Under the pieces are notes generated by a model. That model saw only the letters and a list, made by a program, of their open reading frames with translations, had not been told where the DNA came from and searched no databases. The position numbers and the translations under genes are program-made. 64,000 bases of DNA, taken from assembly GCF_058153355.1 (NCBI RefSeq), contig NZ_CM177019.1; one strand, 5' to 3'. Shown in pieces: positions 17,654-63,353 of the stretch. The first letter of the stretch is position 1; each line of letters starts with the position of its first letter.

Positions 17654-17659
17654 GTCAAA

Positions 17660-17688
17660 ACCGACGCCAAAAGCGTCGGTTTTTTCAT
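17660..17688 (+). terminator. Putative intrinsic terminator after aaeB
   Basis: aaaaccgacgccaaaagcgtcggtttttt: GC stem followed by T-run, just after the aaeB stop. Confidence 0.6.
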
Positions 17689-20581: not shown

Positions 20582-22007
20582 TAATGCCAGTCAGTTAAGC
20601 AACTGACTGGCTCTTTTTCGGGGCTGTGGGGTATTTCCAGGGCCTCTCCTTTACCACTCTCGGGAAGGCCCTTTCCCTTCTTGTCGGTAATTTCACAAGT
20701 TGTCCCATACTTGCAAGATCGCGCATCAGCTCCGGTATACGTCCCGGTGAAGCGCCCTGCAATGTCATCAGCATTCTCATCACCATTCCGCATGATTCTG
20801 AGAAACTCAGTTGATTCGGCCAGTAACCTTTCAGATGTTCCGCCATTTTAATCATCTGATATCTCACCAGATTATAAGCCAGTAAGACACCCCACAGCTC
20901 TTGCTCCACAAGCTCCGGCTTTTTACTTCTCAGCGTCAGCCTGCTCAGTTGCATCGTCTGTTTTATCTCCCTGTATCCCAGTTCGATTTCCCAGCGATGA
21001 CTGTACAGATCCGCCATTTCTCCTCCGGGGAAGCGCATGGCGTCCGTCATCGACGTCAGCAGATGGCAGACTTTTCCTTTGCGCGTCACGGTCAGCAGGC
21101 GGGCTGTCACTTCATTTCCCAGTCCCGGCCACTTTTTTCGTGCCTGCGGGCTGGTTTTCAGCTTCACCAGATGATCGCCTTTACCCAGTTTTCTGATCTC
21201 TTCATATTGCGCTCCCTTTCTGAGAGGTATCATCCAGTGGCGGTGTTCTCCCGCCAGGCTCCAGGCATTTAACAGTCCCAGTGAGTAATAACCTTTATCC
21301 ATTAACGTCAGAGTGTTATCGCCGGTTTGTTCTATAAGTTGCTCAGCAAGCTCATTTTCGCTGTTCTTCATCGTGCCGAAGGCTGCAGCCGTCAGCAGAT
21401 GGCTGGTCAGTTCCATCTGGCAGACCATTTTGACCTGCGGGTAGAGCGCCGGGTTCCCGGCATGTGTCTGGCGGGGGAAGGCTGCATCGTTCTCTGGTGT
21501 ATCCGGTGTGCGCCAGAACACACCATCGATGGCCAGCAGGGTCAGGCCGCACCAGTGCGGATGCGGCGTGGCGTTATGCCAGAGCTGCGCTGTTTTCGTG
21601 AACACGCGGCGGACAGCCTCACTTCCCAGGCGCTGGCGGGCCTGAATAACGGCACTGGGGGCAACGAAGGGGCGATTGCCCGGCAGCATGATGTCCAGGC
21701 GATTCACAATCTGGTGAAGAGGTTCTTTACGCTCAAGCGCCATGCCAACAATACACCAGACCATCATTTCGAGGGGAAGACGGCGCTTGCGTAGCGTTAC
21801 AGTACCTGATTCGGCAAGGCAACGAGAGATGAGTTCGGGGTCGAGGTAATCCCCCAGAGAAGTCAGTGGGTTACGCAGAGAATCGTAACGGGATACCAGA
21901 TCAAGAGCCTGTCCAATGTGCATAAAAAAATCCGGAAACAAGTGAGCGTTTCCGGATTCTTACACAGCCACTGGATCGGTCAACTGATCCTTAACTGATC
22001 GGCATTA
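20582..22007 (-). mobile_element. IS4 insertion sequence, complete (1426 bp)
   Basis: Imperfect terminal inverted repeats taatgccagtcagttaagc (left) and ccttaactgatcggcatta (right); single transposase ORF; flanked by a 12-bp direct repeat; length matches IS4. Confidence 0.9.
20595..21923 (-). CDS. insG: IS4 transposase (InsG-like, DDE family)
   Basis: Canonical start [32 protein letters not shown] inside ORF-track frame 20595-21941; 442 aa. Confidence 0.9.
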
Positions 22008-27529: not shown

Positions 27530-27557
27530 AAAAAAACCCGCTTCGGCGGGTTTTTTT
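27530..27557 (+). terminator. Intrinsic terminator after rplM-rpsI
   Basis: aaaaaaacccgcttcggcgggttttttt: GC stem with GNRA-type loop and T-run. Confidence 0.7.
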
Positions 27558-29034: not shown

Positions 29035-29062
29035 GGAAAACAGGCCCTGGCGGCCTGTTTTG
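29035..29062. terminator. Putative bidirectional terminator between convergent sspB and dcuD
   Basis: aaaacaggccctggcggcctgtttt: perfect hairpin flanked by A-run and T-run. Confidence 0.55.
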
Positions 29063-36298: not shown

Positions 36299-36318
36299 AA
36301 CTTAGTTCGTTTTAAAGA

Positions 36319-36346
36319 TTCTGCAGACACTGTCTGCAGAATTCGA
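36319..36346. repeat. Palindrome of the CAGAC-N3-GTCTG family (copy A), just 3' of yhcH
   Basis: ttctgcagacactgtctgcagaattc; related to the three palindromes inside yhcG. Confidence 0.6.
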
Positions 36347-36367
36347 AACCGCTGAAATTAACGGCGT

Positions 36368-37234
36368 CTATAGCCTTCCTCTAGCACCGCCTGTGTTCGA
36401 ACGAGTTCGGCGGTGGAAAAACAGCAGATCGACACGAAACCAGTTGTCATCAATGCGTAACCTTCGCTGCCGACCAACAAAGGCAAAATCATCCCCAAGT
36501 TCCAGCATTAAATCCATCAGGTGATTGATCAGCGCCTCCTCAAAATCGGATTCTGAGTATTCATCTTTCAATTCCAGAAATTCGAGCACAAAGGGATCGC
36601 GTATCGCCTGTTGCGGAAGAATATGCGTCTCGGCAGGAGCGTGTTGTTGCAGCATGGCTGATTTGTCATGTGACAGTAGTGTTCGCTCATAAAATTGGGT
36701 CGCAATTTGCCGCTCTAGCTGGCGGACAGACCAACCACAGCGGAGCGCCTCTTTTTCATAAAAGCTGCGGGCGTCAGCGTTTTTAACGGAAAGTAGACGG
36801 ACGTAGGTGGACCAAGGCAGGGGGAACGATTTGGCAGACAGCGTCTGCCAAATCTTTGCCGATGGGAATTCTGCAGACGGTGTCTGCGGAATTCCCAATG
36901 GTGTTAATTCGCCAGACACTGTCTGGCGAATTTCAACATGTTGAAAAAAGAGGTAAAAAAGCCTCATTTGGCGTAAGTTTTTTGCAGAGAACCCACGCTT
37001 ATACCTTAGACTTAAATCCTTTGATAGTCGCTTGATTAGCTGCGCACCATACGCAGCTCTGGCCTCGCCACCTTGTTCAAATTCGACAATTCGTCGGCCA
37101 ATTTCCCAGTACGTCGCGGTCATCAGCGCGTTAACGCTACGTACCGTTTCCGTTCGGGCGCTATCGACCAGATGAATAATGCCGTCGTGGATTTGCTGGT
37201 AGCCTGCTGTGGTTCCTTCTGAGAGCGATTCCAT
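36368..37234 (-). pseudogene. yhcG: yhcG-like DUF1016 / PD-(D/E)XK nuclease-family gene, apparently truncated near the 3' end
   Basis: 288-aa ORF MESLSEGTTAGYQQIHDGIIHLVDSARTE... runs to ...RIDDNWFRVDLLFFHRR then gives 12 unrelated residues and a stop; the following ExK nuclease motif is absent; K-12 YhcG recalled as about 375 aa. Confidence 0.5.
36830..36932. repeat. Three tandem perfect palindromes (CAGAC-N3-GTCTG cores) inside the yhcG coding sequence
   Basis: tttggcagacagcgtctgccaaa (36830-36852), gaattctgcagacggtgtctgcggaattc (36866-36894), aattcgccagacactgtctggcgaatt (36906-36932); each encodes I-x-Q-T-x-S-x-E/K on the minus strand. Confidence 0.7.
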
Positions 37235-62799: not shown

Positions 62800-62814
62800 T
62801 CGTCCGAGAGCTGG

Positions 62815-62846
62815 CAGCCCCGTTCGCGGGGCTACCGCCAGACCAC
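62815..62846. terminator. Putative bidirectional terminator between convergent murA and sfsB
   Basis: agccccgttcgcggggct hairpin followed by cattttttcgg. Confidence 0.5.
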
Positions 62847-63125
62847 TCATTTTTTCGGTTTAGTGTAGCTACGCATCAACTGCGTTCTGTCGATAAACTC
62901 ATGGGTCTGCGGATCATGGTAGCGTGATGGCCAGATAACCCAGGGGTCAGTTCCCAGGGCTTTCGCAATAATCATCTCTCCTTTCGGCCATGGGCGCGAT
63001 AATGCGTTCGCCAGCGTTGAGGAACTCAAACCATTTCTACGAGATTCCGCCGCCATTGACGTTCCTTTCTTGCGTAAACCCGCAATGATGTCAGCGGGAT
63101 GCCAGTCAATGAAATTACTTTCCAT
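62847..63125 (-). CDS. sfsB: Ner-like DNA-binding regulator SfsB (Nlp)
   Basis: 92-aa ORF MESNFIDWHPADIIAGLRKKGTSMAAESRRNGLSSSTLANALSRPWPKGE... Confidence 0.85.
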   Translation of the reverse strand: MESNFIDWHPADIIAGLRKKGTSMAAESRRNGLSSSTLANALSRPWPKGEMIIAKALGTDPWVIWPSRYHDPQTHEFIDRTQLMRSYTKPKK

Positions 63126-63319
63126 CTTTCCTCACTCCTTAAGTTAGTCGCTTTCATTCAGAACACTTCTTCTGTCGAGCATCACTATACTCCTGATGGC
63201 CTATTGCTCTAAAAAGTTCCTGTAAAGAGTGTGAATATTCAGAATATATAAAGATACATACACTGGTTTTTCAGGCGTTATTACGCTGAATAAGTGTTTT
63301 TATGGAACTTATTGGAATC

Positions 63320-63340
63320 ATCCCGCGCACTGCGCGGGAT
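63320..63340 (-). terminator. Possible terminator or structured element just 3' of ispB
   Basis: Perfect palindrome atcccgcgcactgcgcgggat about 14 bp past the ispB stop; no clear U-run, so function is uncertain. Confidence 0.3.
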
Positions 63341-63353
63341 GAGGGGGAGGGGA

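Follow-up and report, generated by a model that had tools for sequence, protein, structure and literature searches.

In lambda tR1 (rutA-boxB-rutB) a hairpin lies between the two halves of a rut site. Another arrangement was described by Dar and Sorek, who found Rho-dependent transcripts to end precisely just 3' of stable stem-loops which carry no U-run (PMC6061677). In E. coli these Rho-dependent ends show a bias of C over G downstream, and the stem-loop protects the RNA against PNPase and RNase II (PMC6061677). The hairpin treated here lies behind ispB in a stretch of 64,000 nucleotides of contig NZ_CM177019.1, called the window in the following, and shares two features with this class, namely a stem-loop lacking a U-rich tail and a downstream bias of C over G. 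It is taken as an ordinary, hitherto unannotated case of a known type of transcript-end signal. With somewhat more confidence than doubt it is read as a hairpin which defines the 3' end of the ispB mRNA and blocks exonucleases, the transcript being released by Rho or the RNA being processed downstream.

The hairpin and its setting between ispB and sfsB

The 21-mer atcccgcgcactgcgcgggat had been reported in the initial annotation as a perfect palindrome at positions 63320-63340 of the window. It was found there, and a repeat finder extended it by 2 bp on each side to the inverted repeat TCATCCCGCGCA-C-TGCGCGGGATGA, a repeat of 12+1+12 bp in DNA with 12-nt arms which are 100% complementary and separated by 1 nt. 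In the RNA of the minus strand it takes the form UCAUCCCGCGC-AGU-GCGCGGGAUGA, with an 11-bp stem, a 3-nt loop and a predicted stem energy of -20.3 kcal/mol, which is equal on either strand. As the 21-mer is expected 0.01 times by chance in the window, as the 91-nt context of the hairpin on the minus strand folds with a z of -5.7, and as the whole window contains five perfect inverted repeats with arms of at least 12 and loops of at most 8 compared to 0.05 in dinucleotide shuffles, the palindrome is beyond chance.

The identities of murA, sfsB and ispB were taken from the K-12 annotation of the homologous stretch, and the features of the locus are collected in Table 1. The initial annotation had also placed the palindrome just past the ispB stop and upstream of the sfsB promoter region, which is correct: the hairpin begins 11 nt after the stop, and about 105 nt separate it from the -35 element of sfsB further downstream. 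The two hexamers found by the promoter scan are those of the constitutive sfsB promoter listed in PMC3946193.

Table 1. Features in and around the ispB-sfsB spacer, in window coordinates
Feature	Position	Strand	Basis or remark
ispB stop codon TAA	63354-63356	-	followed by the hairpin after 11 nt
C-rich, G-free spacer UCCCCUCCCCC between stop and hairpin	63343-63353	-	sequence
GC-rich hairpin in the ispB 3' UTR	63318-63342	-	repeat search, folding, covariation and wobble bias
Two tandem 10-mers, ATTCCAATAA and GTTCCATAAA, abutting the hairpin	63299-63318	-	consensus GTTCNNRTAA
G-poor tract with C>G; candidate rut-like or single-stranded processing region	63238-63317	-	composition; role putative
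Inverted 10-mer copy TTACAGGAAC abutting the sfsB -35	63216-63225		alignment
Promoter-like TTTAGA-18-TATAGT upstream of sfsB	63213-63184	-	promoter scan
sfsB	62847-63125	-	homology to K-12 annotation

For the study of conservation 80 ispB loci across Enterobacterales were sampled. The order and orientation of ispB and sfsB were kept in nearly all of them, and those of murA as well where the flank reaches; in several genera extra DNA is found between ispB and sfsB. Alignment of whole spacers yielded the block order hairpin, GTTCNNRTAA, hypervariable stretch, ATTCTGAAT, a conserved TTACNNGAAC next to the -35, -10 and Shine-Dalgarno. The ATTCTGAAT block fits the BglJ-RcsB motif, and the BglJ-RcsB site that has been mapped has its centre 65-68 nt before the sfsB start (PMC3950696). 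Both the sfsB promoter and the BglJ-RcsB site are conserved and lie downstream of the hairpin, which accordingly separates two transcription units: sfsB, with these elements of its own, is a separate, regulated unit, and the hairpin stands at the boundary between the ispB and the sfsB units.

The consensus GTTCNNRTAA next to the hairpin occurs in tandem copies spaced by 10 nt, often two of them, with an inverted copy next to the sfsB -35. Nearly all Enterobacteriaceae show this layout, the motif being matched 38 times in forward and 50 times in reverse orientation compared to about 7 in shuffles. In three Buttiauxella-like loci the two 10-mer copies are exact reverse complements of each other.

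The 228-bp ispB-sfsB spacer of the window is 100% identical to that of E. coli EC42405 and 93.9% identical to that of K-12. Within E. coli the spacer (63126-63353) is unusually polymorphic, especially at about 63255-63290; a hypervariable stretch parts the hairpin from the promoter blocks, both of which are conserved. An allele at least 99% identical to that of the window was found in only 49 of 5,425 E. coli genomes, whereas the identity is 90-95% in most genomes. The sfsB leader of some alleles contains ACAGAA twice owing to a 6-bp duplication. In one E. coli genome (NZ_CM194533.1) the conserved 10-mer is interrupted, a few bases away from the hairpin, by an IS1 insertion (about 583-603 of locus L005, corresponding to about 63307 of the window), which parts ispB from the sfsB promoter region.

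Two further structures were predicted by folding. An AT-rich hairpin, AAUAAGU-N11-ACUUAUU, is located just 3' of the GC-rich one (63289-63313, minus strand), and one of its pairs is changed to G.U in K-12. In the MFE fold of a hypothetical ispB-sfsB read-through RNA the C-rich spacer UCCCCUCC pairs with the Shine-Dalgarno region GGAGUGAGG of sfsB; this modelled pairing of 63343-63353 with about 63129-63145 on the minus strand would mask sfsB translation on read-through transcripts, and it is uninformative, since C-rich tracts in general will pair with Shine-Dalgarno sequences.

The window contains other inverted repeats as well. Four palindromes with a CAGAC-NNN-GTCTG core are found at 36318, 36828, 36867 and 36906 (region 36318-36932), in and beside the PDDEXK nuclease gene yhcG, where the window is 250 bp shorter than its closest genome EC42405 (positions 360-609 of locus L091) and where a 288-aa open reading frame (36368-37234, minus strand) is left, compared to an annotated coding sequence of 1,128 bp. 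The perfect inverted repeats at 17657-17683, 27530-27557 and 29037-29061 look like bidirectional intrinsic terminators since they are flanked by A-runs and T-runs. Further perfect inverted repeats occur at 20586, 21929 and 43488.

Conservation of the stem and the strand on which it probably acts

In Enterobacteriaceae the hairpin starts 1-25 nt after the ispB stop, and the first 70 nt after the stop fold with a z below -2 in 36 of 38 loci, the median energy being -19.6 kcal/mol. The sequence of the stem varies by genus with its pairing kept (UCAUCCCGCGC, GUCUCCCUGCG and UUUAGCGCGCC; GGGGCC in Pantoea). What is conserved across Enterobacteriaceae is a stable hairpin after the ispB stop, in its pairing rather than in its sequence.

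Covariation was tested in Enterobacteriaceae on two MAFFT alignments which were blind to structure, one of 30 species and one of 35 whole spacers. In the first, 84% of the cells were paired and 33 cells were compensatory compared to 13.9 in shuffles, and in the second 80% were paired and 32 were compensatory compared to 14.7, with 0 of 500 shuffles reaching the observed value in either case; as the species are related, these counts, like those of wobble pairs given below, do not represent independent events. Changes on both sides were seen in seven of the eleven stem pairs. When the register was slid as a control, pairing dropped to 32-57% in the 30-species alignment and to 22-60% over both alignments. 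The whole-spacer alignment provided an internal control too, a candidate long-range RNA helix between the hairpin-side 10-mer and its inverted copy, which showed no covariation and a pairing of 67% compared to 65.7% in shuffles and was rejected.

The deviations from perfect pairing are not distributed evenly between the strands. In a mismatch search which treats G.U and A.C symmetrically, the internal transition mismatches of Enterobacteriaceae, read on the ispB-sense strand, comprised 11 G.U and 2 A.C (p = 0.02), and over all loci 20 G.U and 6 A.C were counted on this strand (p = 0.009). Every stem polymorphism among the sampled E. coli alleles yields a U.G pair on the ispB strand, these being a change from A to G in the 3' arm (NDM1, JS316), a change from C to U in the 5' arm (SMN013SH2), and a change of the outermost pair (K-12). 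Bases which change while pairing is kept, together with strand-biased wobble pairs, are the signature of an RNA helix and not of an operator. To judge from these sequence comparisons, the constraint points to the RNA of the ispB transcript as its target rather than to a DNA operator.

A scan of the hairpin region with Rfam 15 returned sub-threshold chance matches only, and the RefSeq annotation is empty at this site. A weak match to STnc560 among them was regarded as spurious because STnc560 sits between ydeI and ydeE in Salmonella.

Proposed formation of the ispB 3' end and competing explanations

The tail which follows the stem on the minus strand is UUCCAAUAAG, with 3 U in 8 nt in the window as well as in K-12. 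A U-run after the hairpin is absent on both strands and a terminator scan found 0 sites, so the initial annotation was right in noting that the ispB strand has none. From the features which characterize an intrinsic terminator, a GC-rich stem-loop shortly after the gene is present and a U-tract of at least 5 U in 8 is missing. The initial annotation had also considered a pause site; inspection by eye of the positions 10-12 nt downstream of the hairpin revealed no match to the pause consensus G-10/Y-1/G+1.

A rule calling for a hairpin plus at least 5 T in 8 was applied to the region after ispB in all families. It was passed by 3 of 3 loci in Hafniaceae, 2 of 3 in Morganellaceae, the single locus (1/1) in Budviciaceae, 14 of 18 in Erwiniaceae, 5 of 13 in Yersiniaceae and 0 of 5 in Pectobacteriaceae. 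In Enterobacteriaceae 6 of 38 loci passed and 32 failed, four of the passing ones being Citrobacter with a homologous hairpin. Since other families often carry a hairpin with a U-run at the same position, the site is probably a transcript-end site. The earlier suggestion that the palindrome is something other than a terminator stands as far as the missing U-run is concerned, but not in denying it a role in the end of the transcript, as it sits where other families often have a hairpin plus a U-run. Most likely the hairpin still serves the formation or the protection of the 3' end, release being probably due to Rho or to processing.

The main rival to this explanation is a self-sufficient, non-canonical and presumably weak intrinsic terminator which would need no Rho. 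Here the great stability of the stem, possibly with help from NusA or NusG, would make up for the degenerate U-tract UGAUUCC, and polymerase would be released a few nucleotides beyond the stem. This is a possible but unlikely alternative. It is in line with the frequent occurrence of hairpin plus U-run at this position in other families, with the strength of the stem, which equals that of good terminators, and with the Citrobacter loci, where UUCUUAUAA or AUUUUAUAA comes after the homologous hairpin and satisfies the 5-of-8 T rule. The U-poor tail in both the window and K-12, the empty consensus scan and the failure of 32 of the 38 Enterobacteriaceae loci under the U-run rule argue against it, and the combination of such a tail with flanks in which C exceeds G fits the Rho-dependent class (PMC6061677).

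The composition of these flanks was determined in 36 species. The spacer between stop and hairpin contains 51% C and 8% G when pooled, and the 80 nt downstream of the hairpin contain 25% C and 11% G, with C exceeding G in 35 of the 36. In the corresponding 80-nt tract of the window 15 C and 9 G are found; its G content falls within the lowest 1% of windows, and its excess of C over G is modest, reaching only the top 8.5% of windows, which counts against an end formed with the help of Rho.

Treatment with bicyclomycin (BCM) has revealed that Rho terminates transcription on the ispB/sfsB strand in a region reported at NC_000913.3 position 3335370 with a Rho score of 7.8, the read counts being 119/12 in untreated and 161/127 in BCM-treated cells (PMC7815308, Supplementary file 2). 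The hairpin is located 654 nt upstream of this position, a distance which falls within the reporting window of +/-800 nt, the resolution of the method. As only the best position per +/-800 nt is reported in PMC7815308, the signal is not assignable to ispB rather than to sfsB transcripts; it lies after sfsB and may reflect this gene's own transcripts, which is a second point against the reading of the hairpin as the end of the ispB mRNA. Rho does act on the ispB/sfsB strand in the neighbourhood of the hairpin. The curated Term-seq lists of PMC7815308 contain no 3' end after ispB, which is weak evidence because these lists are limited to the dominant ends, some 900-1,200 in each condition. Searching the literature broadly for ispB together with terminator, Rho or ProQ yielded nothing relevant, and entries for an ispB 3' end or for Rho at ispB were absent from the text-readable supplements of PMC6061677, PMC9023263, PMC12207403, PMC11092163, PMC6144790, PMC6407284 and PMC5145812.

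The convergent gene murA likewise ends with a U-less hairpin, GGCAGCCCCG-TTCG-CGGGGCTACC (62813-62836, plus strand). By Term-seq the 3' end of the murA mRNA was located at K-12 positions 3335194-3335196 (PMC7815308), which is 12-14 nt past this hairpin. Together with a Rho region some 380 nt further on, it may by analogy be taken as a local precedent for a U-less hairpin at the end of a message.

According to the explanation by Rho release or processing, transcription of the palindrome would provide the ispB mRNA with its final structured element, which would act as RNA on the minus strand, where the 11-bp GC hairpin, 11 nt past the stop, would define and stabilize the ispB 3' end. From the missing U-tract in Escherichia we infer that the hairpin alone releases RNA polymerase inefficiently. 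Rho, acting on the G-poor untranslated RNA with C exceeding G which flanks the hairpin, would release the polymerase further downstream, or else the read-through RNA would be cut within the AU-rich stretch. The 3'-to-5' exonucleases PNPase and RNase II would then trim the RNA back until blocked by the hairpin.

The tandem 10-mers could be part of the 3'-end signal, or else a DNA-level site for the control of sfsB. The motif right after the hairpin may be such a DNA-level site rather than a part of the RNA signal, which is a further point against the main explanation; at the level of a guess, some regulator of sfsB, SfsB itself perhaps, would bind the 10-mer copies as a pair of DNA sites. A speculative and rather doubtful extension makes the 10-mers part of the RNA signal, so that in Enterobacteriaceae the ispB terminator of other families would have been replaced by a conserved composite of C-rich spacer, hairpin and G-poor tail with tandem GTTCNNRTAA, functioning as a hairpin-clamped, bipartite Rho-loading site. 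If this were true, it would depend on Rho or on the state of translation whether transcription of the essential ispB reads through into sfsB, the gene of a Ner-like regulator, and the inverted 10-mer at the sfsB -35 would tie the composite to the control of the sfsB promoter.

The remaining alternatives abandon the ispB transcript. The hairpin might act on the plus strand, ending or protecting antisense RNA which runs from murA across sfsB into the spacer. The palindrome folds equally well on that strand, and a BCM-sensitive Rho region was found on the murA strand at 3334816 (PMC7815308), corresponding to about 63218 of the window on the plus strand, inside the ispB-sfsB spacer, some 380 nt beyond the murA 3' end and about 100 nt before the hairpin in that direction; both points also count against the assignment of the hairpin to the ispB mRNA. 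A role on the plus strand is nevertheless improbable, as the wobble pairs and the E. coli polymorphisms speak for the ispB-sense strand, the distance of the hairpin from the ispB stop stays within 1-25 nt in all genera, a G-rich run follows it on the plus strand, and the curated Term-seq lists of PMC7815308 show no 3' end there.

A binding site for a protein, which had been offered in the initial annotation, found no support. Such a palindromic DNA site, at which a dimeric regulator, perhaps one of sfsB, would bind, would agree with the location of a perfect palindrome upstream of a regulated promoter and with the abutting conserved 10-mer, which recurs inverted at the sfsB -35. It is very improbable in view of the comparison between genera, which conserves complementarity and not base identities: seven of the eleven pairs change on both sides, and symmetric base identities, as expected of a palindromic operator, were not conserved across species. 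The strand bias of G.U over A.C would be meaningless for duplex DNA, and the mapped BglJ-RcsB site is far from the hairpin.

A REP-like element had been suggested as well. A 41-nt query was matched in 5,421 of 5,426 complete E. coli genomes at 1-4 places per genome, with a median of 2, the second place per genome being the same site on the other strand (local BLAST, 25 nt, 41.9 bits); in the window no further copy was found even with 3 mismatches allowed, and the K-12 annotation has no repeat feature at the hairpin. Although the palindrome is intergenic and GC-rich, its single copy in E. coli and a chance expectation of about 0.01-0.05 allow a REP or BIME-like or other dispersed repeat, or a chance palindrome, to be dismissed.

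Comparison with known transcript-end signals

For the annotation of this region the hairpin supplies a missing item, as it is likely to mark the point at which the ispB transcription unit ends and to set that unit apart from sfsB; for biology at large it changes little. A mildly novel angle is that the U-tract of other families is missing in Enterobacteriaceae and that a conserved motif follows the hairpin instead. The locus also offers a clean comparative case in which covariation preserves a hairpin where the U-tract of other families is missing. Such cases should help in the training of predictors for 3' ends of the Rho-dependent or processed kind, which are still hard to recognize from sequence.

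With REP elements the ispB palindrome shares the nature of an intergenic, GC-rich palindrome presumably able to stabilize upstream mRNA; it differs from them in being single-copy, in being unlike the REP consensus and in lacking an annotation as REP in K-12. Canonical intrinsic terminators resemble the hairpin in position, stem length, loop size and stability, but the U-tract is missing in Escherichia and most Enterobacteriaceae, and there is no upstream A-tract. The likeness to lambda tR1, as far as the nucleotide composition suggests it, would consist in C-rich, G-poor and presumably single-stranded segments flanking a hairpin in untranslated RNA, although the upstream C-rich segment at ispB measures only 11 nt. 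In contrast to lambda tR1, we know of no antitermination protein binding to the ispB hairpin.

The Rho-dependent ends of PMC6061677 have in common with the ispB locus the stable GC stem-loop near the stop, the missing U-run and the downstream bias of C over G, and a BCM-sensitive region is found nearby on the same strand as ispB. Compared to this class, to which it is putatively assigned from sequence, the ispB hairpin stands out by its unusually high conservation and by the conserved 10-mer behind it.
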